From assembly GCA_035477115.1 (NCBI GenBank), contig DATIKW010000039.1, forward strand, positions 19,405 through 83,404: a stretch of 64,000 nucleotides of DNA, in the 5' to 3' direction. The position numbers and the translations under genes are program-made. Below, piece by piece: positions 8,538 through 30,723 of the stretch; position 1 is the stretch's first letter; every line of letters starts with the position of its first letter. Below the pieces are notes generated by a model. That model worked only from the letters and a program-made list of their open reading frames with translations. It had not been told where the DNA came from and did not search any database. This stretch comes from Bacillota bacterium. GTDB taxonomy: Bacteria > Bacillota > Sulfobacillia > UBA995.

Positions 8538-8737
8538 CTCCCGACTCCGGCCTTGGGACTGGTTAGAGTGGGACGGCGTTGTTCTATTATTCGCCGCCGA
8601 CGATGGCTCCGCCTTCCTCTAGCGCCATTGTTTGGGGTCAATCTGGGCACGGCTCCCTGGCAGGTAACCGATATCTCGGGTTAGAATGGGGTGACGCGAC
8701 CGAAAACGAGGTCCGGAGAGGTGGAGGATGGTCGGAC

Positions 8738-11236
8738 ATGAATGAGAGCCAGCCAACGATCCCGGCGGAGGAGCGGGAGACGATCCTTTCAATCACGGGC
8801 ATGAGTTGCGCCGCGTGCGCTCAGAGCGTGCAGGCTGCTCTGCTCAAGGTAGCCGGGGTCCGCTCGGCGACCGTGAACTTCGCCACCGGGCGCGCCTACG
8901 TCCACCACGATCCCGACCGCGCCGGTCTGGATAACCTGAAACGGGCGGTGGCCGCCGCCGGCTACCGCGTGGAGCAGGAGACGGCCACGGCGGTGTTGCC
9001 CATCGAGGGGATGACTTGCGCCGCCTGTTCGAGCGCCATCACCCTCAGCCTTGAGCGGACGCCCGGCGTCCACGAAGCTTCGGTCAACCTGGCGACGGCC
9101 CGGGCCACCGTCGTATACGACCCGGAACGCACCGACCTGCCGGCACTGCGGCGGGCGGTGGAGGCCGTCGGTTATCGGGTCAAAGAAGGGGAGGAACTGC
9201 GCCGGACTGACCGTCAGGAGGCCGAGCGCCGGGAGTTCAGCCTGGCCCGTCGCCGACTGCTGCTGGCGTGGGCGCTCACCATCCCGATCATCCTGTGGAT
9301 GATCCCCGATTTCTTCCTGCACCATGTCCCCTTCGGCCACCGGGCCATGAACCTGGGCATGATCTTCCTGGGAGCCCCGGTGCTGTTCGGCGCTGGCCTC
9401 GCCACCTACCGCTCGGCGGCCAACGCCCTCGCCCACCGGAACGCCAACATGGACGTGTTGATTGCCATGGGCACGCTGGCGGCTTTCGCCACCGGTCCCG
9501 CCTCCTTCGCCTTCCCCATCGCCAACTACGCGGGGGTTGCGGCGATGATCATGGCCGTGCACCTCACCGGTCGTTACTTTGAAGCCCGGGCAAGGGGGAA
9601 AGCCTCGGACGCAATCCGCAAGTTGCTCCAGCTCGAGGCGGACACCGCCAACCTGCTGGTGGATGGCGATGAGGTAGCCGTGCCCATCGAACAGGTGCAG
9701 GTGGGTGACGTGATGGTCGTGCGGCCCGGGGAGAAGATCCCGACCGACGGGGTGGTCCTCGAGGGGTTGAGCACGGTCGACGAGTCGATGGCGACGGGAG
9801 AGTCGCTGCCCGTGTCCCGTGGTCCCGGAGACGAGGTGATCGGCGCGACCATCAACCAACAGGGCATGTTGAAGATCCGGGCCGTCCGGGTGGGCCGCGA
9901 TACTTTCCTGGCGCAGGTCATCCGGCTGGTAGAACAAGCTCAGGGGACGCGGGTGCCCATCCAGGAGTTCGCCGACCGGGTCACGGCAGCCTTTGTGCCG
10001 GTGGTACTGGCTATCGCCGGACTGACCTTCGCCGCCTGGCTGCTGCTCCCCGATCGGCTGCACCGGGTGGTCGTTGCCGCCGCGCCGTTCATCCCCTGGG
10101 TCGATCCCGGACTTGACCCGATCACCCAGGCCATCGCCGCCACCGTGGCCGTGCTGGTCATCGCTTGCCCGTGCGCGTTGGGCCTGGCCACACCCACGGC
10201 GCTGATGGTGGGCAGCGGCCTCGGCGCCGAGAACGGAGTGCTGATTCGCCATGGAGCGGCAATCCAACTCCTGCAAGAAGCCCGGACCATCGTCTTCGAC
10301 AAGACGGGCACGTTGACTACCGGCCGTCCTGGGGTCACGGCCATCGAACCCCTGGGGGGTTTCGACTACCGGGAGTTGCTCCGGCTGGCCGCCGGGGCCG
10401 AACAGGGTTCGGAGCACCCCCTGGGTCGGGCCATGGTGGAGCGAGCCCGGCAAGAGCCTGACCTCGTCATCCCCCCGGTGGATCACTTTGAAGCGGTGGT
10501 GGGCAAGGGGGTGCGCGCCCGGGTGGAGGGACGGGAGGTGGTCCTCGGCACCCGCAGCTTGTTACGGGAAGCGGGGATCGACCCCGAACCGCTGGAAGAG
10601 GCGGCCAGGCGCCTTGAGGAAGAGGGCAACACGGCGGCACTGGTGGGCGTGGACGGAAGCCCGGCCGGAGTCATCGCTCTGGCCGACACCATCAAGGAGG
10701 ACGCTTCGCGCGCCATAGCCGAGCTTTCGCGGCTGGGTTACCGGACCAGCATGCTGACCGGAGACAATCGCCGCACCGCCGAGGCCATAGCGCGCAAGGC
10801 AGGGATCGGCAGGGTGCTGGCGGAGGTCCTCCCCGGCGACAAGGCGGCCGAGATCCGGCGGCTGCAGGCGGCCGGCGAGCGGGTGGTGATGGTGGGCGAC
10901 GGCATCAACGACGCGCCCGCTCTCACCCAGGCGGATGTAGGCGTGGCGCTGGGGACGGGCACCGACATCGCCATCGAGTCGGCGGCGGTGACGCTGGTGC
11001 GGGGCGACCTGGCGGCGGTGGTGACCGCCATCAACGTCTCGCGGCACACGTTCCGCAAGATCCGCGAGAACCTCTTCTGGGCGTCTTTCTATAACCTGGT
11101 CGCTATACCCCTGGCGGTACTGGGCCTGATGCACCCGGTGATCGCGGAGATCGCCATGGCGACCAGTTCCATCAGCGTGGTCGCCAATGCCAACCGGCTG
11201 CGGGGAGTACGGGTGCGACCGGACTTCACGCCCTGA
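8738..11236 (+). CDS. copA: copper-translocating P1B-type ATPase with two N-terminal HMA domains
   Basis: [11 protein letters not shown] and [11 protein letters not shown] metal-binding motifs, the CPC transmembrane motif ([13 protein letters not shown]), DKTGTLT phosphorylation site and GDGINDAP. Start trimmed to the ATG at 8738 behind GGAGAGGTGGAGG. Confidence 0.9.
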
Positions 11237-18682: not shown

Positions 18683-19404
18683 GTTTCCGTCAACTCCAGG
18701 AAGATCTGCTCCAGGGACTCCTTGTCGCGGGCTTGATCGCGCAGTTCATCCATGGTGCCGAGGGCGATGAGCTTGCCCTTGTGAATGATGCCGATCCGGT
18801 CGCACAGCTTCTCGGCCACCTCCAGGATGTGGGTGGAGAAGAAGACGGCCCGGCCGTGCGCGCATCGGTCGCGGAGGATCTCCTTGAAATGATGGGCCGA
18901 CCGCGGGTCCAGACCTACCATGGGCTCGTCCATGATGAAGATCATCGGGTCGTGCAGCAGCGCTCCCACCAGGACGATCTTGTGGCGCATGCCGTGGGAG
19001 TAGCTCTTGATGGGATCGGCCACGACCCGCGTGAGGGCGAACAGCTCAAGAAGGTGCGGGATCCGCTCCTGGCGCTCCTCGGCCTTGACTCGGTACACGT
19101 CGGCCAGGAAGTTCAGATACTCGATGCCCGTCAAACGCTGGTAGATATCAGGATTGTCCGGCACGTAACTCAGGCGCCGCTTCACTTCCAGCGGAGAACC
19201 GGCCAGATCGTACCCGGCCATCCGTATGCTCCCCCGGTCGGGCCGGAGCAGCCCCACCATCATCTTGATGGTGGTGGTCTTGCCGGCGCCGTTGGGCCCG
19301 AGAAAGCCGAAAACCTCGCCCGCCCTGACCGACAGGTCCAGGGCGTCCACGGCCTTGACTTGCCCCCGGTTGTAGGTCTTGGTCAGCCCGCTCAGCTCGA
19401 TCAA
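18679..19404 (-). CDS. ABC transporter ATP-binding protein
   Basis: Walker A (GPNGAGKTT), the YSHGMRHKIVLVGAL signature region, Walker B (IFIMDEP). Confidence 0.9.
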   Translation of the reverse strand: MIELSGLTKTYNRGQVKAVDALDLSVRAGEVFGFLGPNGAGKTTTIKMMVGLLRPDRGSIRMAGYDLAGSPLEVKRRLSYVPDNPDIYQRLTGIEYLNFLADVYRVKAEERQERIPHLLELFALTRVVADPIKSYSHGMRHKIVLVGALLHDPMIFIMDEPMVGLDPRSAHHFKEILRDRCAHGRAVFFSTHILEVAEKLCDRIGIIHKGKLIALGTMDELRDQARDKESLEQIFLELTET

Positions 19405-19658
19405 CGTCCCATGCCCTCCGTTTCCCCCCCGGTGCGACCGGCCGCCGCTCCGGCCTCCCCGCTGGCGGGGGACCGCCGTCCCTCCTCACGCTCGCGGTCC
19501 AGCTTCCTCCTCCTCTGTCGGACGCAGTCGGTCAACAAATACTCGATCTGCCCGTTGATGGAACGGAAATCATCCCGTGCCCATGCGGCCAACTCGCGCC
19601 ACAAGGCGGGCGACAGGCGCAACACCAGTTGCTTCTTGCCGTTCTCCCGGTCGGCCAC
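19401..19658 (-). CDS. Arc/MetJ-type ribbon-helix-helix DNA-binding protein (putative regulator of the downstream ABC exporter)
   Basis: KKQLVLRLSPALWRELAAWARDDFRSINGQIEYLL matches the Arc-like RHH pattern. 85 aa, 4-bp overlap with the ATPase gene. Apparent GTG start. Confidence 0.55.
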   Translation of the reverse strand: MADRENGKKQLVLRLSPALWRELAAWARDDFRSINGQIEYLLTDCVRQRRRKLDREREEGRRSPASGEAGAAAGRTGGETEGMGR

Positions 19659-19681: not shown

Positions 19682-20710
19682 TCAGTATAGAGTCCCGCTG
19701 TTGACGATGGGCTGGACGTCACGGTTGCCGCATAGTACCACCAGGAGGTTGCTCACCATGGTCGCTTTGCGTTCCTCGTCGAGTTTGACGATATCGTTCT
19801 CGTTCAGCTTGGCCAGCGCCATCTCCACCATGCCCACCGCGCCTTCCACGATCAGTTGTCTCGCATCCACGATAGCCGAAGCCTGTTGGCGCTGGAGCAT
19901 GGCCGCCGCGATCTCGGGAGCGTAGGACAGGTGAGTGATGCGGGACTCCAGGACCTCGAGCCCCGCGGCCTCGACCTTGGCCTGGAGTTCCCCGCGGAGG
20001 CGGTCCGCCACTTCCTGGCTGCTGCCGCGCAGCGACATCTCCGCTTCATCGCGAGGAGAATCGTAAGGATAGTCGCGGACGATGTTACGCAGGGCCGCGT
20101 CGCACTGGATAGACAGGAATTCCTTGTAGTTCTCCACGTTGAACAGCGCCTTGGCCGTGTTGACCACCCTCCAGATGACCACGACGCCGATGATCACCGG
20201 GTTACCGAGCTTGTCGTTGACCTTCTGCTGGTCGTTGTTCAGCGTCTCCGCCTTGAGCGATATGGCCATCCGGCGACCGGCACCCGGGAGAGACAAGGCG
20301 CCGGAGCCGGCCCGCGCGGCAGGCGCGGCAGGACCGAATGGGTTCACCGGACTGACGAAGGGATGGACGAAGAAGAAGCCTTCGGACTTGAGCGTACCGT
20401 AGTACTTCCCGAACAAGGTCAGGACCAGCGCTTCATTGGGCCGCACCACTTTCAGCCCCAGGAAGATGATCGGCCCGATGATGGCAAGGTACAGCAGGCC
20501 GACACCGATCATGACCATGGCCGCCCTGAACCTTCCGGCGGGGACGAGCGCGCCTGCCGCTCCTTCCGCCATAACCGCTCCGTACACCACCACAACCAGG
20601 GCGGCGATCATCAAGGCCAGGTTGATCACCAGGACGGGCATCCCCGGCCAAGCAGGTGCATTCGCCTCAGCTTGAGGCGCGGTTCTGGGCCCAACAGCTC
20701 TTTCCGACAT
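19682..20710 (-). CDS. SPFH/band-7 (stomatin/prohibitin-like) membrane protein
   Basis: N-terminal TM segments followed by an SPFH domain (EALVLTLFGKYYGTLKSEGFFFV...QKVNDKLGNPVIIGVVVIWRVVNTAKALFNVENY...). Confidence 0.85.
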   Translation of the reverse strand: MSERAVGPRTAPQAEANAPAWPGMPVLVINLALMIAALVVVVYGAVMAEGAAGALVPAGRFRAAMVMIGVGLLYLAIIGPIIFLGLKVVRPNEALVLTLFGKYYGTLKSEGFFFVHPFVSPVNPFGPAAPAARAGSGALSLPGAGRRMAISLKAETLNNDQQKVNDKLGNPVIIGVVVIWRVVNTAKALFNVENYKEFLSIQCDAALRNIVRDYPYDSPRDEAEMSLRGSSQEVADRLRGELQAKVEAAGLEVLESRITHLSYAPEIAAAMLQRQQASAIVDARQLIVEGAVGMVEMALAKLNENDIVKLDEERKATMVSNLLVVLCGNRDVQPIVNSGTLY

Positions 20711-20734
20711 GTCCTCGCGTCCCCTCTGTCGTCG

Positions 20735-20775
20735 AGTGCGATATCATTATGATATCATATTGCATGATACGCCCT
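20735..20775 (-). promoter_or_regulatory. AT-rich island with near-palindrome GATATCATTATGATATCATATTGCATGATA upstream of the SPFH gene (putative promoter/operator)
   Basis: A sharp local AT excursion in a 68% GC background, just upstream of the 20710 start. Confidence 0.3.
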
Positions 20776-20939
20776 CCCATCGGCGGATGTCAAGCGCACG
20801 GCTCCGCGATCTCCTCCTCCGGAAGGGGACGGATGCGCGAGGAAGTGGTACGGATAGTTGCAAGCGCGGAGACTGCGGTTGGGAACCCGGTCGTGCAGAG
20901 GAGCTAGACTGGCGCCTCGACCCGGACTGTAGTCACGGC

Positions 20940-20968
20940 GGGGCGGGTTCGGAACCCGCCCCTACCTT
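20940..20968. repeat. copy of the 29-bp palindromic element (GGGGCGGGTTCGGAACCCGCCCCTAC)
   Basis: Exact match seen in the intergenic region between the SPFH gene and cupin A. Confidence 0.6.
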
Positions 20969-21017
20969 GGGATCGACCATGACCGTGACCATGGCGGGTA
21001 CCCACTGAGGCATGCGA

Positions 21018-21476
21018 CTACGGTTTCTTGGCGGCTATGACCTCTTTCATCTCCGCCCCGGTCTTGACCGGGCGGTTCGCGTCCCGATATAGCTGTTCAA
21101 GCCGCTGGAGCGAGTGGATCTTGAGATCGGGATGCGGCGGGGGCGAGTATACCAGGATGAAGCTCGCAGTGCGGTCACTGGTGTTCTTGATTTCCACCCG
21201 CGGCCCAGGCTGCAGCGGTATCAGCATCGCCATACGCGGCAGCAGTTCATACTTCTTGCCGTCACGGGTGATGTCCAATCGACCTTCCAGCATGTAGATC
21301 GCCCGCTCCAAGAATTCTTTGCTCTCCGGCGTCGAACCGGTGGTGATACTCACGCCCGGCAGCAGGTAGCTCACGCTCATGCTGATGTTCTCGCCGAACA
21401 CGAGGGGTTGATACCAGTCGGGCTTATGGAAGAATCCGGGCATGTCATCTAGCTTGACGACCTGGAACTCCGCCAC
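21018..21476 (-). CDS. cupin-domain protein (cupin_2), paralog A
   Basis: 152 aa (MAEFQVVKLDDMPGFFHKPDWYQPLVFGEN...). About 90% identical to the gene at 21775..22233. Apparent GTG start behind GGAGGAGG. Confidence 0.7.
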   Translation of the reverse strand: MAEFQVVKLDDMPGFFHKPDWYQPLVFGENISMSVSYLLPGVSITTGSTPESKEFLERAIYMLEGRLDITRDGKKYELLPRMAMLIPLQPGPRVEIKNTSDRTASFILVYSPPPHPDLKIHSLQRLEQLYRDANRPVKTGAEMKEVIAAKKP

Positions 21477-21774
21477 CGCACATCCTCCTCCACGTGCAAG
21501 TTACCTGCCCCCCGCCTACGGGTGGACAGGGCTCTCGTGCGTCTTACCAGCTAACCATGGCGTAGTAAGTGGCATCCCTCCCCTATCCATTCGCGCCAAC
21601 GGTGTTCTTCGCCACCCGGCGATCTCCTCCTCGCGCCGGTGCGGGGGGGGGCGGGACCGCGGTTGGGAGTCCCGGGTTGCAGTCGATAGTCGTAGAAAGA
21701 GGGAAGCGGGGGACGCCTCCGTCGGTTGCCGGCGCCAGCACTCAATGCTACGGCAGAACCCGCGAGGTATGTGA

Positions 21775-22233
21775 CTATGGTTTCTTGGCGGCTATGACGT
21801 CTTTCATCTCCGCGCCAGTCTTGACCGGCCGATTGGCGTCCCGATACAGCTGTTCAAGCCGCTGGAGCGAATGGATCTTCAGGTCCGGGTGCGGCGGAGG
21901 CGAATACACGCGCACGAAGCTCGCCGTGCGGTCACCGGTGTTCTTGAGTTCCACCCGCGGCCCAGGTTGCAGCGGTATCAGCATTGCCATACGGGGGACC
22001 AGTTCATACTTCTTGCCGTCCCGGATCACGTCCAACCGACCTTCCAGCATATAAATCGCCGTTTCCAGGAACTCCGTACTCTCCGGCGTCGAACCGGTGG
22101 TGACACCCGCGCCCGGAAGCAGATAGGCCACGCTCATCCTGAGGTTCTCGCCGAAGAGCAGAGCTTGATACCAGTCGGGCTTATGAAAGAATCCGGGCAT
22201 ATCATCGAGCTTGACGACCTGGAACTCGGCCAT
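21775..22233 (-). CDS. cupin-domain protein (cupin_2), paralog B
   Basis: 152 aa, ATG start behind GGAGGAGG. Tandem duplicate of paralog A. Confidence 0.7.
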   Translation of the reverse strand: MAEFQVVKLDDMPGFFHKPDWYQALLFGENLRMSVAYLLPGAGVTTGSTPESTEFLETAIYMLEGRLDVIRDGKKYELVPRMAMLIPLQPGPRVELKNTGDRTASFVRVYSPPPHPDLKIHSLQRLEQLYRDANRPVKTGAEMKDVIAAKKP

Positions 22234-22457
22234 GGCGCATCCTCCTCCGCGTGTAGCTACTCGCGCTCGCCTATGGGTACGCAGGGCTAGCAGGCATTGT
22301 ACCTGCTAAGCAGCATATTTGAGTGGCATCCCTCCCCTAGCCATTCCCGCCGACGATGTTCTCCACAACCCTGCGATCTCCTCCTCGGGCTGGCACGACG
22401 GAGCCGGGGCCTCGGCCTCTCCCGGGTGGCGATCAGACGCGGTGAGTGGCGGGCTGC

Positions 22458-23612
22458 TCACTCGGAAGCGCAGTCAGACCGCTCGAACTCGATGGCGCGC
22501 GCACCATGAAACCGGGCCCACTCTTCCAAGGCGGAGGCGAAGCCACCGGGCACCTCCTGCCCCTCCCACCAGGGTCCCCTCACCACCAGCGCCCCTCGGC
22601 GCCGATCGAGGCGGGGCGCGAAACGACCGGCCAGGCGGTCGCCGTGCAGGATGGCCATCGCGTACGATCCATAGGTTCGCCGTTCCCTGGGCACGTATGC
22701 CTCCCAGCGATACTGAAAGTCGAAGAGTTCGGCCGCCCGTCGCCGGCAGATGATCAGGTTGTCCAGCGGGGGCAAGAACTTGACCCCGTCTCCCCCGCAG
22801 TCGCCCGGCGACCGCAGTTCGCTCTCCAGTTCGGCGGAGAGGTAATAGGGGTCAGCGAGGCTCCCCACAGCGACGGGGATGAGTTCGCCCGCGCCGACCA
22901 GCCGGGCGATGGTCTTCCGCCTTCCTCCGGGCGGTTGGCGGCTCCAGGCCAGATGGGGGTCGGTCGAGCTGGCCAGCCCGGCGGCCCGGAAGTACGCCCG
23001 AGCCAGGAAATCCGGGTCATCAGCGGCGCCGGCGCTGATGCCGGGCAAGACCCGCCCGGTCAAGTCGAAGAAGCGCAGGTTCCCGTGGCGGTGGTGGATG
23101 ACCAGCCGGCCGAAGTGCCATAGCCACTCCAGGGCTTGGCTGATGGCCCTGGTCCCTGCCTTCCCCTCCCGATCCCACCAGCCCTGCACCTTGTCCCGGG
23201 AGTCGAAGCAGCGCGAACTCATGGGGCCGCGAGCACCGATCGCCCGCTCGATCGCCTCGAACATGGGTTCGAAGTCCTTCAGACCCGGGCGGTAGCGCTG
23301 CTCCAACTCCCGGAATCGCGGGAGGAAGTGCGGGAACAGGACCGTGGGGACGATGCAGCGTACGGTGGTGACGGCTTCGATCAAACTGCGTTCGGCATAG
23401 AGCAGTCGATCGAGATGGGCCGGCGCATATCCGGCCACGCGGGCCTGCAGCACCAGGTGATGATTGCGCTCCACCACCTGAATGGGGTCGATCTGGACGT
23501 AGCCGAGACCGTCCACCGCCGCCCGCGCATCCGCCCACCGGGACTCGGCGGTGAGGCCATGCCGTCGCACGAGGAAAGCGCGAGCAGTCGCCGGTTCAAT
23601 CCGCAGCGGCAC
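22458..23612 (-). CDS. YcaQ-family (DUF1006) winged-helix DNA-binding protein, putative interstrand-crosslink DNA glycosylase
   Basis: Track ORF 22458..24905 trimmed to the GTG at 23612 (GGGAG upstream, 2 nt after the permease stop). VPLRIEPATARAFLVRRHGL...GYVQIDPIQVVERNHHLVLQARVAGY... is typical of YcaQ/AlkZ. Confidence 0.7.
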   Translation of the reverse strand: MPLRIEPATARAFLVRRHGLTAESRWADARAAVDGLGYVQIDPIQVVERNHHLVLQARVAGYAPAHLDRLLYAERSLIEAVTTVRCIVPTVLFPHFLPRFRELEQRYRPGLKDFEPMFEAIERAIGARGPMSSRCFDSRDKVQGWWDREGKAGTRAISQALEWLWHFGRLVIHHRHGNLRFFDLTGRVLPGISAGAADDPDFLARAYFRAAGLASSTDPHLAWSRQPPGGRRKTIARLVGAGELIPVAVGSLADPYYLSAELESELRSPGDCGGDGVKFLPPLDNLIICRRRAAELFDFQYRWEAYVPRERRTYGSYAMAILHGDRLAGRFAPRLDRRRGALVVRGPWWEGQEVPGGFASALEEWARFHGARAIEFERSDCASE

Positions 23613-23614
23613 GC

Positions 23615-25293
23615 TCAACTCCCGCGCGCGGGTTCGCCGGCATCGATCAAGGCGCCGGCCAAGAGGGCAGGCAGCGCCACCCCGCCCATGCCGAAGACCG
23701 CGAGCAATACCAGGCCGAGGGCGCGTCCCCAGCCGGGGATGTCCAAGGGGGCGGTGGCCAGGATGGCTGCGCCCCCCAGCAGTCCCAGGTATACGAGGGG
23801 CAGGACGAACCCGGCCAGCAGGGACCATCCCGACATGACCTGTTGGGTTTGCTCGCTGCTGTACCGGCTGAGCCCCACTCGGCTGAACAGGGCCCCGGCC
23901 GCGAGGGTCAGCGCCACCATCCCCGGCGTCGCGAAGACCACCGCCCCGGCCAGCGCAAGATAGTCCCATCCCCGGGCCTGCATCACCAGGCCGGTGGCGG
24001 GTACCAGCAGTATCCCGGGAGCGATGGCCAGGACCGAGGCGCCGAGGACCTTGCCCCCCACGATGTCCAGGCCGGCCAGGGGCGCGCTGCGCATCAGCAC
24101 CCAGGCTTGCCCCTCGCCGAACAGCATCCTCGTACCCATCTGAGAGGCGAGGAAGGCGTGGACCAAGCACAGTATGCCCATCGTCAGATACAGGCGAAGC
24201 GGGCCCTCCCGCCATCCGCCGGCCCCGCCGCCGGCCATGGCCGCCGGCAGGATCATCCCGATCACGACGAAGATGATCAAGTGAAAAGAGCCTGCCCAGT
24301 TCTGGGGATCGCGCACAAATATCCGCATCTCCTTGAGGGCGATGGCGAGCACCGGCGAGCGCCGGGGAAGAGGCCCGGCCGGAGCCCGGACCGCCCGGCG
24401 GCGCCTCCGCCTCCATACCTCGCCGCTGCCTGCCCATCCCCCGTAAAACGCCTCGCGAACCAGCCCGAAAGCGGCGACCAGGACGAGCAGGGATGCGGCG
24501 GTGGCCAGTGACGACCAGCCCAAAGCGACGCCCGCGTGACCCCGGGCCGCGGCGTAGGTGGCTCGTGCCAGCCACCAGGCAGGGGACAACTCGGCTTCCG
24601 ACAGCCGGAGTACCCCGATGGCCTCGGCCAAGCGCCCGGGGTCCATCCGGCCCGCGAAACGGGCGCCTAGCTGGGTCGCCGCATAGGTGATCGAAGCGAA
24701 GAGCATGCCGATGAAGCCGCCGATTTCTCGTACGCGATGGGCGGGTATCAAGCGCAGGGCAAGCAGGTTCAACAGCATGCCAACGGCCACCGGCAAGAAT
24801 ATCGTCAGCGTGCTCAGGTAGAGGACGGCTGGATAGAAGGTCCAGGATGCTCCGTAGCCGGCGCCGAAGCCGATGGTCACGGGCAGCACGAGCAATAGCA
24901 CCCACAGGCTCTGCGGCACCATCACTTCCAGCAGTTTAAGACTGAACACCTGGTTGACGGTGAGGGGGGCCACGAACAGCCTTGCCAGGTCGGAGGACGA
25001 GTACATGACCAGGAAAGCGGCGCCCACGGCGCTGAAAAGGCAGGCTACCAGTCCGATCAGGTAGATGCCGGCCAGAAGGGGCAGCGTCATGCCGGCCATG
25101 CGCTCCGCGAGGTCGGAGGGGGCGCCGGGCATGCCCGCCGCCATCCAGGCGAAAAGCTCGTATGCCCCATAGGTGAGCAAGGACGCCCAGCCGAGGGCCG
25201 CCAGCCCGCCGAGGGAGCCCAGGACGGCGGCCAACCAGGGTCTCCGGGTGTAACCGCGCCAGAGGAGGCGGAGTTTCCAGACGGCCAGGCGGA

Positions 25294-25297
<4 letters not shown>
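23615..25297 (-). CDS. ABC-exporter permease (12-TM), paralog 2
   Basis: Trimmed to the GTG at 25297, which overlaps the ATPase TGA (GTGA). Hydrophobic throughout; same family as 17009..18682. Confidence 0.75.
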
Positions 25298-26064
<767 letters not shown>

Positions 26065-30460: not shown

Positions 30461-30723
30461 CTGGCATCCCTCCCCTTGGTGATTGCGATACTAATCCGAA
30501 AACGCCACGCGCTACCGGGAATGGTGATTCGTCCCATGGCCGATACTTCCTCCTCGCCCGCGATCGAAAATCGGACCCATTCCCCGGCTCGCATCGGTGC
30601 CCCGTCCACCGCCAAAATGCGGTCGCGGGGGTTACGGCCGCGGGATGGTCGTGGCCGCCCTCTCCGCCGCGGCAGGGGTTGGCTTCCCTGGGCCGAATCT
30701 TGAGCACTCAGAGGAGGCGGCGC

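Follow-up and report, generated by a model that had tools for sequence, protein, structure and literature searches.

We find by sequence comparison that the conserved block in the leaders of two tandem cupin genes, located in the 64-kb stretch of DNA that was analysed as a whole (the window), is the upstream half of a larger control module, which is conserved over about 165 nt. Of the four islands in this module, the block contains islands (i) and (ii). In the lineage of the window the module lies directly 5' of the cupin gene, and in more distant relatives it lies upstream of a gene for a CPC-type, His-rich P1B heavy-metal ATPase. It is in all likelihood a shared cis-regulatory element of a metal-stress regulon, and the upstream region is very probably a metal-stress switch, which may work as DNA or as RNA. 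A search of the literature found no description of such a leader.

An old tandem duplication of a cupin gene

Both cupin genes are on the minus strand and, according to the ORF list, encode proteins of 152 aa: paralogue B (21775..22233) starts with ATG and paralogue A (21018..21476) with GTG. The layout described in the first-pass annotation, two direct-repeat units of about 757 bp that each carry the 152-aa gene and its upstream region, was confirmed, as the coding regions are spaced 757 nt apart and the leader blocks 754 nt. The protein identity, put at about 90%, was measured at 88% (86.5% for DNA), and the intergenic gaps upstream of B and A are 224 and 298 nt, respectively, instead of the 240-300 nt given for the leaders. 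The units are arranged head-to-tail, their flanks are homologous, and the junction can be defined. The spacer between A and B can be aligned in its 5' part with the sequence that follows A and in its 3' part with the sequence that precedes B, and the homology switches at the 14-mer GAGGAGGAGATCGC.

The duplication had been considered recent. However, the two paralogues differ with a dN of 0.06 and a dS of 0.52, and a diverged relative, L006, contains both an A-type and a B-type cupin copy, which indicates that the duplication is old. Orthologues of the B type are present at L004a and L006a, and those of the A type at L002, L004b, L006b and L014. The module was copied along with the cupin gene in this old event, giving one copy per paralogue. 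The view that paralogue A acquired its GTG start is probably the reverse of what happened: GTG is found in the A-type copies, in the B-type copy of L006, and in L003 and L008, and it is the ATG start of window B that looks like the derived state.

The 64 kb contain three exact copies of the 14-mer GAGGAGGAGATCGC, where 0.1 would be expected, and all three fall within 1.6 kb. Two of these constitute island (i) of leaders B and A; the third (20806..20819, minus strand) precedes the -35 hexamer of an SPFH/Band-7 gene promoter by 12 nt, and is probably the end repeat of the duplication, in the order repeat-segment-repeat-segment-repeat. Three identical 14-mers bracketing two units of 754-813 bp resemble the products of unequal recombination between short direct repeats. 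The present case differs in that the duplication is old and in that L006 shares it, yet has a single 14-mer; the third copy is missing at the equivalent position in both L002 and L006. The three identical 14-mers may instead have been kept by selection or gene conversion.

Downstream of B there is a terminator-like hairpin followed by a T-rich tail (21702..21720, minus strand), and this suggests that A has its own, separate transcription. A perfect GC-rich hairpin read from the sequence 3' of A, GGGGCGGGTT-CCG-AACCCGCCCC (20940..20962, minus strand), is kept in L002 and is likely a terminator.

The assignment of the proteins to the cupins is tentative. Their match to Cupin_2 (PF07883) is weak, with a Pfam score of 20.8 bits that is below the gathering score of 27.2. 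The predicted fold, on the other hand, is consistent with a small cupin: the AlphaFold model (pLDDT 63) has an all-beta core, and its Foldseek matches, of which the top-ranked are cupin-like domains within larger proteins, include the small single-domain cupins TM1459, XC5357 and EutQ (probability 1.0, TM 0.42-0.50). The HxH motif, as defined by cupin motif 1, G(X)5HXH(X)3-4E(X)6G, was not found in the sequences, in which the residues E54, E57, E64 and H115 are invariant. A tblastn search of the cupin against plasmids yielded one remote cupin. This is an uncharacterised and narrowly distributed cupin family without the canonical metal-binding histidines.

Conservation of the leader module and its link to metal-pump operons

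The leader block is located at 21568-21639 in leader A and at 22322-22393 in leader B, 89-163 nt upstream of the start codons. The two blocks are identical at 62 of 72 positions, whereas the leaders outside the block are 63% identical, which agrees with the first-pass annotation of a conserved block between diverged flanks. The identity of the block (86%) also exceeds that at the four-fold degenerate sites of both genes (71%). At this neutral rate the probability of finding 10 or fewer differences in 72 nt is 0.0024, so the selective conservation is real and the block is under purifying selection. Conservation at orthologous loci had been set beforehand as a test of the proposed regulatory role, and the block was found 5' of every close cupin orthologue located (L002, L003, L004, L006 and L014).

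It is highly improbable that the block has no function of its own and that A and B are similar there by chance or through local gene conversion. Conversion could account for the identity of the three GAGGAGGAGATCGC copies at a dS of 0.52. However, the block is kept in the single-copy loci L002, L003 and L014, beyond the reach of conversion between paralogues, and in ATPase leaders from organisms that share no more than 67-79% identity in this protein, and the deviation from the neutral rate is a further argument against this explanation.

When the window and every locus were searched with a profile of the block, matches were confined to cupin and ATPase leaders, the latter as weak matches about 100 nt upstream of the ATPase genes of L007 and L008. 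Direct reading of these two ATPase leaders revealed all four islands, with order and spacing kept, and the same is true for L017, L018 and L023, which were obtained via ATPase orthologues. In total, 13 leaders were available for comparison. A near match at 30462-30477 of the window is the ordinary ribosome-binding site of a 1413-aa ORF. A pattern scan of metagenomes gave four unrelated matches, including an apparent queG-type coding region, a telomeric contig from a ciliate and one unidentified sequence, and a scan of viral contigs gave one chance match.

The module extends from GGAGGAGAT, which is island (i), to an inverted repeat with a C-tract-ATAGG (island iv) that ends 20-35 nt before the ribosome-binding site; in between are island (ii), ATGG followed by 14 G-rich nt and CCA, and island (iii), YTAGCAG. 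All islands are on the minus strand. In leader B, island (i) is the Shine-Dalgarno-like GAGGAGGAGATCGC (22373..22386), whose homologue before the ATPase genes of relatives is CAGGAGGAAAT. It is followed by island (ii), ATGG-CTAGGGGAGGGATG-CCAC (22323..22344), a G-tract with TGG/CCA flanks; by island (iii), TTAGCAGG (22302..22309), whose YTAGCAG is shared by 10 of 12 aligned leaders; and by island (iv), CCCATAGG (22270-22277), in a weak inverted repeat (22256..22291; GCTA..CTGCG / CGCgAG..TAGC) with a folding z of +0.35, which is not significant. The corresponding islands of leader A are the exact 14-mer (21619..21632), ATGG-ATAGGGGAGGGATG-CCAC (21569..21590), TTAGCTGG (21547..21554), and an inverted repeat or hairpin, CCTGTCC-ACCCGTAGGC-GGGGGGCAGG (21504..21530), with the apex CCCGTAGG at 21515-21522; this hairpin has a folding energy of -19.8 kcal/mol (z=-2.9, p=0.017 versus dinucleotide shuffles). 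A good island (i) is missing in L006b and L023. In L006a, a deletion of about 45 nt removed islands (iii) and (iv), while islands (i) and (ii) are almost unchanged and the gene is intact.

The genes downstream of the module tie it to metals. The ATPase matches TIGR01525/TIGR01512 and contains a CPC motif, and its N-terminus is (HD)n-rich. An intact cupin homologue follows the ATPase gene in L007, L008/L009 and L016, and in L017 the cupin at this position is shortened to 65 aa. An LmbE/BshB1-like gene is located after the cupin in L008, L016 and L017, and directly after the ATPase in L023. In L018, the gene directly 3' of the ATPase encodes a CsoR/RcnR-family protein (PF02583), with Cys and His at what we take to be the metal-ligand positions of the family. 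A tblastn search of the 64-kb window and the other loci found no CsoR-family gene besides that of L018.

Operator, structured RNA, leader peptide or stabiliser

The first-pass annotation proposed that the block is a cis-regulatory RNA or an operator controlling each copy. One cis-regulatory element per copy is what we find, although a riboswitch or structured RNA within the block is unsupported. Among the possible readings of these sequences we tentatively rank first a metal-responsive promoter/operator that couples cupin expression to metal stress. According to this model, islands (i) and (ii) would form the promoter region and include a G-tract operator located roughly at the start of transcription. 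A repressor that senses metal would bind this operator, and the CsoR/RcnR (DUF156) family is the most plausible source of it. The 5' UTR would then contain islands (iii) and (iv), and the inverted repeat around CCC-ATA-GG would form a hairpin there that acts on mRNA stability or translation; alternatively, this repeat may be a second, inverted operator.

Several features are in line with an operator. Type-1 operators of the CsoR/RcnR family are defined by one G/C-tract, 3-8 bp long, between inverted repeats, and often occur as tandem sites (PMC3902906). Tracts in this range are present in island (ii), which has 4-8 G across the leaders (GGGG-A-GGG up to G8), and in island (iv), which has C3 to C8. 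The inverted repeat that flanks the tract of island (ii) across the leaders is TGG-N14-CCA (ATA-N14-TAT in L023), and island (ii) of the cupin-type leaders reads AT-N9-AT. The module shares with sites such as that of Escherichia coli RcnR (TACT-G6-N-AGTA, rcnA-rcnR) a single tract of 4-8 bp with a flanking inverted repeat, the presence of two tract sites per control region (island ii and, on the opposite strand, island iv), a position at or near the promoter of a metal-efflux gene and, at the L018 locus only, a DUF156-family gene in the same operon. It differs from them in that the flanks are TGG/CCA and 14 bp apart, instead of AT-rich and 6-9 bp apart, in that the two candidate sites are about 60-70 bp apart and inverted, in that the pump looks like a Zn/Cd-type and not a Ni/Co or Cu pump, and in that no regulator gene is seen beside the putative sites at the cupin loci. 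The operator reading is further supported by L006a, where islands (i) and (ii) are kept along with an intact gene despite the loss of the other two, and by the lack of local RNA structure in island (ii), of any match to Rfam and of covariation.

With regard to promoters, a sigma-70 site was defined as -35 and -10 hexamers with a spacer of 16-18 bp at a conserved position. L017 and L007 contain a good promoter, TTGACG/TCGACG-N17-TATGGT, that overlaps island (ii) and places the G-tract at about +1 to +15; it scores 14.3 in L017 and 9.3 in L007, compared with 18.9 for the clear SPFH promoter. No consistent sigma-70 site scoring above about 5 was found in window leaders A and B or in L002, L003, L006, L008, L014, L018 and L023, and a separate promoter scan of the minus strand of the leaders found no sigma-70 promoter either. 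Other promoter types, checked by eye, were discarded: for sigma-54 the GG/GC spacing is off by 3, the putative -10 of an ECF-type GAAC...CGT promoter falls on variable positions, and sporulation sigma F/G/E/K, sigma-H and sigma-B promoters do not fit the conserved spacing.

The absence of a consistent sigma-70 promoter at island (ii) of the window copies, L002, L003, L008, L018 and L023 argues against the operator, as do several other observations. First, islands (iii) and (iv), which follow island (ii) at a distance of about 60-80 nt, are conserved and keep their spacing whatever the downstream gene, a pattern more typical of a functional RNA leader. Second, the arms around island (iv) are wholly different between lineages, which argues against a conserved protein recognising them. 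Third, CsoR/RcnR sensors are known mainly for Cu and Ni/Co, while the pump looks Zn/Cd-type. Finally, a CsoR-family gene adjoins the module in one locus only, and none is present in the window.

It is plausible, though in our view still a minority possibility, that the module is a cis-acting RNA, either a new riboswitch-like or a protein-binding leader, in which island (ii) provides a single-stranded G-tract and island (iv) the surplus C residues to pair with it. These C residues would be located in or next to a hairpin loop, so that a long-range helix or pseudoknot would be formed, and the pairing would be shifted by a ligand, either a metal ion or a factor that depends on metal, with a resulting change in translation of the downstream gene. 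Besides the paucity of convincing promoters near the block, this possibility is favoured by the four islands, whose order and spacing over about 110 nt are kept with either an ATPase or a cupin gene downstream. Complementarity between islands (ii) and (iv) was seen in 84% of cells, compared with 50-65% when the partner is slid, with U-G wobbles in the A-type copies and L017, and the two islands pair in the minimum-free-energy folds of L003, L007, L017, L008 and L018.

The tests of RNA structure, however, gave little in its favour. Both the comparison with Rfam covariance models and the analysis of covariation, which the first-pass annotation had put forward as checks, had negative outcomes. 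Rfam 15 gave no match in the whole window at the gathering score, including NiCo/czcD, yybP-ykoY and M-box; at E<=10, the region 20400-22800 gave only three chance matches, far under gathering; and at E<=1 nothing relevant was found in L003, L006, L007, L008 and L014. Consensus folding with RNAalifold was nearly structureless, with a covariation term of -0.22 kcal/mol for 9 leaders and a total of -1.1 kcal/mol in a local run with 13. None of the four explicit helices (Ha-Hd) rose above the control, since their covariation scores were reached by 37, 416, 58 and 356 of 500 shuffles, and the pairing rests on invariant columns. Three registers of (ii):(iv) pairing failed on the alignment or against controls, and so did hairpins drawn by eye (an SD-loop at island (i), CCGUU/AAUGG and GCAGG/CCUGC). 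CsrA-type GGA motifs and TRAP-type UAG repeats were dropped for want of regular spacing, and we know of no link between CsrA or TRAP systems and metal pumps.

The block had also been called structured, which is not borne out by its local folding z-scores of about 0. For whole leaders and for the span from island (ii) to (iv), z ranged from -2.7 to +1.9 with a mean of about -0.3 to -0.5. The sole structural signal is the inverted repeat with lineage-specific arms around island (iv), which is not part of the block but follows it at a distance of 45-65 nt. The roughly 35 nt around this island folded better than shuffles in 7 of 12 leaders (z -1.7 to -4.3), among them L008 (-4.3), leader A (-2.9), L018 (-2.7), L023 (-1.9) and L014 (-1.7), and this counts for an RNA. 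The hairpin was not significant in the other five (leader B, L004a, L003, L007 and L017), and it has no strand-specific signature, as the antisense strand folds at least as well. Two further points against an RNA are that the L006a gene is intact without islands (iii) and (iv), and that the best promoter of L017 and L007 would begin the transcript inside island (ii).

The module resembles the known metal riboswitches (NiCo/czcD RF02683, yybP-ykoY for Mn and M-box for Mg) in that it is long and conserved, precedes P-type ATPase or exporter genes of Bacillota, has conserved islands at fixed spacing and may form long-range G/C pairs. In contrast to them, it has no Rfam match, no covariation-supported helices and no known ligand, and, one small hairpin excepted, it folds no better than shuffles. 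We consider it rather unlikely that the module is a previously undescribed class of metal-responsive RNA in high-GC Bacillota, with a pseudoknot between the G-tract and the C-rich loop and a regulon of Zn/Cd-type P1B ATPase, cupin and LmbE-like genes. Such a pseudoknot would possibly be coupled to a leaderless MxRGGxP mini-ORF.

This mini-ORF is the basis of another explanation, to which we give little credence, namely that a short regulatory peptide of the leader, M-x-R-G-G-x-P, begins in island (ii) and in most cases stops at the TAG/TAA in island (iii). Translation would start at a leaderless or SD-independent AUG, and ribosome occupancy or stalling would set the folding of the downstream hairpin and through it expression, as in attenuation. 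In leader B, the ORF could be the 12-codon MARGGMPLKYAA. The ATG is present in 11 of 13 leaders, codons 3-5 and 7 vary at third positions only (AGG/AGA, GGA/GGG), and codon 8 is CTT, CTC, CTG or CTA in five leaders. Furthermore, an in-frame stop falls on island (iii) in leader B, L004a, L003 (TAA, not TAG), L008 and L018; L007 and L017 stop at codon 11 (TAA), with the TAG of island (iii) in the same frame two codons on; and a TACAAT hexamer 7 nt upstream of the ATG of L017 is compatible with a leaderless transcript. The ATG, however, has no Shine-Dalgarno sequence and, in the other leaders, no consistent -10 at the right distance, and it is absent from L023 and from L006b, which has ACG instead and has lost 1 nt. 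A-type leaders carry an insertion of 1 nt that shifts the stop to island (iv), and the peptide sequence is not conserved beyond residue 8. Since only purine-rich codons are used (AGG, GGR; never CGN/GGC) in a GC-rich genome, it is the nucleotides that are constrained and not the peptide. The statistical support for the peptide is weak, as we estimate p ~0.09 for the two third-position sites. A short MxRGGxP ORF followed by a hairpin upstream of a P-type ATPase recalls attenuation by leader peptides such as mgtL, which precedes the P-type ATPase gene mgtA, and those of erm/cat. The differences are that the uORF has no SD and is lost or frame-shifted in some leaders, that there is no terminator U-tract, and that Arg-Gly-Gly-x-Pro offers no sensing logic. 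An ORF from an ATG inside GGGATGCC was rejected, as ATPase-type leaders have ACC or AGG in place of this codon and L006b has AGG.

Another explanation, which we regard as very unlikely, is that islands (i) and (ii) are stabilisers of a long 5' UTR of the STAB-SD type, which would bind 30S subunits or another factor and protect against 5' decay without any sensing. In our own comparison, GGAGGAGAUC agrees at 9 of 10 positions with the complement of the 16S rRNA 3' end (Bacillus-type anti-SD), and islands (i) and (ii) and the true SD are all GGAGG-like. A usable start codon follows island (i) only in some leaders and is lost in L002, L014 and L006a; an ORF from the GTG after island (i) of window A was discarded, as this codon is GTA in L002 and L014 and GCA in L006a, and L003 has no stop. 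Stabilisation leaves islands (iii) and (iv), the C-tract and the link with metal-pump operons unexplained, and it does not fit L006b and L023 with their lack of a good island (i). The cry3A leader of Bacillus thuringiensis likewise has a perfect SD-like sequence far upstream, with no conserved start after it, in a long Gram-positive leader; the module differs by its second G-rich island, C-tract, hairpin and tie to a metal operon.

Implications for the cupin family and its proposed regulon

If the module is a metal-responsive switch, the cupin family would gain a physiological context, stress by Zn/Cd or related metals, and a small regulon of uncultured high-GC Bacillota would be defined, comprising the pump, the cupin and an LmbE/BshB1-like deacetylase. 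It would also be a compact test case of a control region that moves between genes and is then duplicated along with a gene. If the operator reading is true, G-tract operators of the CsoR/RcnR type would be extended to an unusual geometry and a different pump type, which would be useful, though unsurprising. If the RNA reading is true, it would add a metal-sensing leader for the Zn/Cd type of pump, for which we know of no riboswitch.

Age and layout of the cupin duplication

The window carries two cupin genes of 152 aa each on the minus strand: cupin A (21018..21476), which starts with GTG in the ORF list, and cupin B (21775..22233), which starts with ATG. They share 88% identity at the protein level and 86.5% at the DNA level, and according to the repeat finder, the starts are 757 nt apart in the coding parts and 754 nt apart in a 72-nt block upstream of them. 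In the first-pass annotation this tandem duplication was regarded as recent. However, it is an old one. Firstly, the copies differ by dN = 0.06 and dS = 0.52, and are therefore not young. Secondly, the diverged relative L006 contains both types (the first copy orthologous to cupin B, the second to cupin A), and hence the duplication took place before these lineages diverged. Only the A-type copy is present in L002 and L014. It had also been proposed that cupin A acquired its GTG start. Yet GTG is widespread, being used by the A-type copies, the B-type copy of L006, L003 and L008, and because of this distribution of start codons it is the ATG of cupin B that is likely to be derived.

A 14-mer, GAGGAGGAGATCGC, is present in three exact copies in the window (22373-22386, 21619-21632 and 20806-20819; 0.1 expected). 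The B-A spacer is composite: its 5' part aligns with sequence that follows A, its 3' part with sequence that precedes B, and the switch falls at the 14-mer. Unequal recombination would be expected to leave such a repeat-segment-repeat-segment-repeat layout. The third copy lies 12 nt upstream of the promoter of the SPFH/Band-7 gene, a position at which the 14-mer was not found in L002 and L006. A short ORF starting from the GTG after the 14-mer was rejected, because this codon is replaced by GTA or GCA in L002, L014 and the first cupin copy of L006. The terminator-like hairpins downstream of B (21702-21720) and of A (20940-20962) suggest that each cupin copy is transcribed as a unit of its own.

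The cupins belong to a tiny family (13 clusters among 5.8 billion proteins), and their Cupin_2 Pfam match of 20.8 bits is below the cut-off of 27.2. An AlphaFold model based on 13 family members was modest (pLDDT 63), with a beta-barrel core; its Foldseek matches include the small single-domain cupins TM1459, XC5357 and EutQ, the top-ranked ones being cupin-like domains within larger proteins. The canonical HxH motif was not found in the family, and residues E54, E57, E64 and H115 are invariant. Read on in frame directly past its TAG, cupin A would continue as SHASVGTRHGHGHGRSQG, with a His-Gly repeat that the direct repeat CATGGTCACGGTCATGGTCG gives rise to (region of 20974-20993). In the second copy of L006 and in L014, a sense codon replaces the homologous stop, and the protein runs on into the Cys-rich sequence SCSSGRCGA; a metal-binding tail may thus have been present in the ancestral cupin.

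The SPFH/Band-7 gene (19682..20710, minus strand) has a near-consensus promoter, TTGACA-N18-TATCAT. Directly after it, within the same region (20739-20793, minus strand), lie two tandem palindromic boxes, ATATGATATCAT-AATGATATCG, which are kept in L002, L004 and L006 and are likely to be an operator, perhaps bound by the 85-aa protein encoded just downstream of the SPFH gene (19401..19658; no Pfam match). An 815-aa ORF (22458..24905, minus strand) proved to be an over-extension; following the call in L004, it corresponds to an AlkZ-like DNA glycosylase gene of about 384 aa (roughly 22458..23612, minus strand), with an ABC_tran_2 gene (23615..25471) as its immediate neighbour. L004 and L006 keep the same gene order: ABC_tran_2, AlkZ-like, cupin(s), SPFH, the 85-aa gene and ABC ATPase.

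A leader module shared with heavy-metal ATPase operons

The 72-nt block (21568-21639 for A, 22322-22393 for B) is 86% identical between the copies, compared with 71% at four-fold degenerate sites and 63% in the remaining leader. Such identity has a probability of P=0.0024 under the neutral rate, so the block is under purifying selection, and the selective conservation of a leader segment noticed earlier is borne out. It also extends to orthologous loci: the block is located upstream of the cupin in every close relative retrieved, i.e. L002 (a UBA8125 MAG), L003 (a UBA995 MAG), L004, L005, L006 (both copies) and L014. That the block has no function is thus hardly credible.

The block is part of a module of ~165 nt with four islands: (i) an SD-like sequence, (ii) a G-tract after ATGG, (iii) YTAGCAG and (iv) a C-tract followed by ATAGG; the first two constitute the block. 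The SD-like character of island (i) would fit an mRNA stabiliser, which we consider improbable. Together with the next bases (GGAGGAGATCGCCGGGTGGCGAAG, 21619-21640), this island resembles the translation start of cupin A (GGAGGAGGATGTGCGGTGGCGGAG, 21481-21491), which could go back to an internally duplicated initiation region, or be a chance likeness among SD-like sequences.

The same module is present upstream of ATPase operons that contain a cupin homologue. Distant cupin homologues (57-68% identity) have no block in front and are located directly downstream of a ~710-aa gene. A profile search with the block gave weak matches ~100 nt upstream of this gene in L007 and L008, and these regions show the complete leader architecture: island (i) as CAGGAGGAAAT, island (ii) as TATGG-TAAGGGGAGGGACC-CCAC or TATGA-CTAGGGGGGGGACC-CCAC, island (iii) as YTAGCAGC and island (iv) as CCCCCCATAGG. 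The gene encodes a heavy-metal P1B ATPase (TIGR01525/TIGR01512 match, CPC motif, (HD)n-rich N-terminus), predicted from its sequence to be of the Zn/Cd type. Among further loci, retrieved via ATPase orthologues of at least 67% identity, the module is carried by L017, L018 and L023. It is absent from L019-L022, whose ATPase orthologue P0021 is 67% identical, and hence even close orthologues of the ATPase do not all have it; P0021 adjoins Coat_F (spore-coat) genes. In an alignment of 13 leaders, homology extends from island (i) to ~20-35 nt before the ribosome-binding site, whether the next gene is the ATPase or the cupin.

The ATPase is followed by the cupin and an LmbE/BshB1-like gene in L008, L016 and L017, by the LmbE-like gene in L023, and by a DUF156 (PF02583, CsoR/RcnR-family) gene in L018 (3779..4066, genome GCA_031082145.1). 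The latter protein has Cys/His at positions that we take to be the metal ligands of the family; a DUF156 gene was not found in the 64-kb window. The cupin homologue of L017 (3810..4007) is only 65 aa long, owing to either a frameshift or an early stop codon, the ATPase and LmbE-like genes being intact. The non-coding stretch before the ATPase is unusually long, 550-800 nt (246-813 in L008, 951-1500 in L017, ~661 to ~1473 in L018); the conserved module occupies only its last ~165 nt, and the rest of the stretch showed no convincing ORF at these three loci.

The window has a CopA-type P1B ATPase gene (8579..11236, plus strand; likely start the ATG of MNESQP near 8739), with two GMxCxxC domains and a CPC motif. 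Its product is 40% identical to the module-bearing ATPase of the relatives, and upstream of it lie TAGAAT and then GGGGTGAC; the four-island module is not present there. The simplest history is that the window lineage lost or separated the module-bearing ATPase, which placed the module directly before the cupin, and that this unit was then duplicated.

RNA structure, leader peptide or operator

The first-pass annotation envisaged a structured, riboswitch-like leader. Rfam searches gave no match in the whole window at the gathering score, and nothing relevant either in the cupin region at E<=10 or in five related loci at E<=1; the module thus matches no known RNA family. Covariation lends the proposal no support either. 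RNAalifold gave -11.2 kcal/mol for nine close leaders, with a covariation term of -0.22, and -1.1 kcal/mol in a local run on 13 leaders. Single-sequence z-scores were -1.0 and +0.65 for the full leaders and -1.9 to +1.2 for ten segments from island (ii) to (iv). For four helices scored on alignment A4 (TGG/CCA on either side of the G-tract, two (ii):(iv) registers, and GCAGG/CCUGC), covariation scores were equalled or exceeded by 37, 416, 58 and 356 of 500 shuffles; their existing pairing rests on invariant columns, which are uninformative on structure either way.

Island (ii) and its flanks have no local structure (mean z +0.3). Against dinucleotide shuffles, the ~35 nt surrounding island (iv) show a more stable fold in seven of 12 leaders (z of -2.9 for cupin A of the window, -2.2 for L002 and the second copy of L006, -1.7 for L014, -4.3 for L008, -2.7 for L018 and -1.9 for L023), but no significant signal in those of cupin B of the window, the first copy of L004, L003, L007 and L017. 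The hairpin arms differ wholly between lineages (CCUGCCC/GGGCAGG; GGCGUC/GACGCC; GCUGUgCCCU/AGGGACAGC; GGCU..CCUA/UAGG..AGCC), and all enclose the invariant CCC-AUA-GG. When eight lineages, which are not fully independent, are combined by a rough Fisher calculation, p is ~1e-4. The opposite strand folds equally well or better, and the signal is therefore an inverted repeat without strand signature. We consider a novel RNA switch, our second-ranked reading, less likely than not.

Island (ii) can also be read as codons, ATG-NNN-AGG-GGR-GGG-ANS-CCA (M-x-R-G-G-x-P), raising the alternative of a leader peptide. Eleven of the 13 leaders have this ATG, and what little variation the tract shows falls on third codon positions. 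The mini-ORF stops at the TAG of island (iii) in the B-type leaders, L008 and L018, and at a TAA in the equivalent position in L003; that of L007 and L017 is already closed by an in-frame TAA after 10 codons, the island (iii) TAG lying two codons on. However, the frame is shifted by one base in the A-type leaders, the ATG is absent from the second copy of L006 and from L023, and no Shine-Dalgarno sequence precedes it, so that translation would have to be leaderless. Moreover, the codons are only purine-rich ones, which argues for constraint on the nucleotides and not on a peptide. We regard a leader peptide as a minor and quite unlikely rival.

As DNA, island (ii) is a G-tract between TGG-N14-CCA (ATA-N14-TAT in L023), and island (iv) is a motif of the same kind (WATGG and a G-run) on the opposite strand. 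The type-1 operators of CsoR/RcnR regulators are defined by G/C-tracts, often in tandem, that lie between inverted repeats (PMC3902906). The module resembles these in its G/C-tracts, but its flanks and spacing fit poorly. A simple position-weight scan, in which the SPFH promoter scores 18.9, placed a good sigma-70 promoter over island (ii) only in L017 (TTGACG-N17-TATGGT, 14.3) and L007 (9.3); no consistent sigma-70 site appeared in either window copy or in the remaining leaders. In the first copy of L006, a natural deletion of ~45 nt removes islands (iii) and (iv), with islands (i) and (ii) nearly unchanged and the gene intact.

All of the complementarities observed are inverted repeats at the DNA level as well, and the sample comprises 13 leaders from ~8 independent lineages; for these reasons, DNA and RNA readings are not separable. 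We tentatively rank first, at somewhat less than even confidence, a combination in which the promoter-proximal G-tract would serve as an operator and the hairpin would lie downstream in the 5' UTR. From its association with heavy-metal ATPase operons, we infer that the module gives metal-responsive control.
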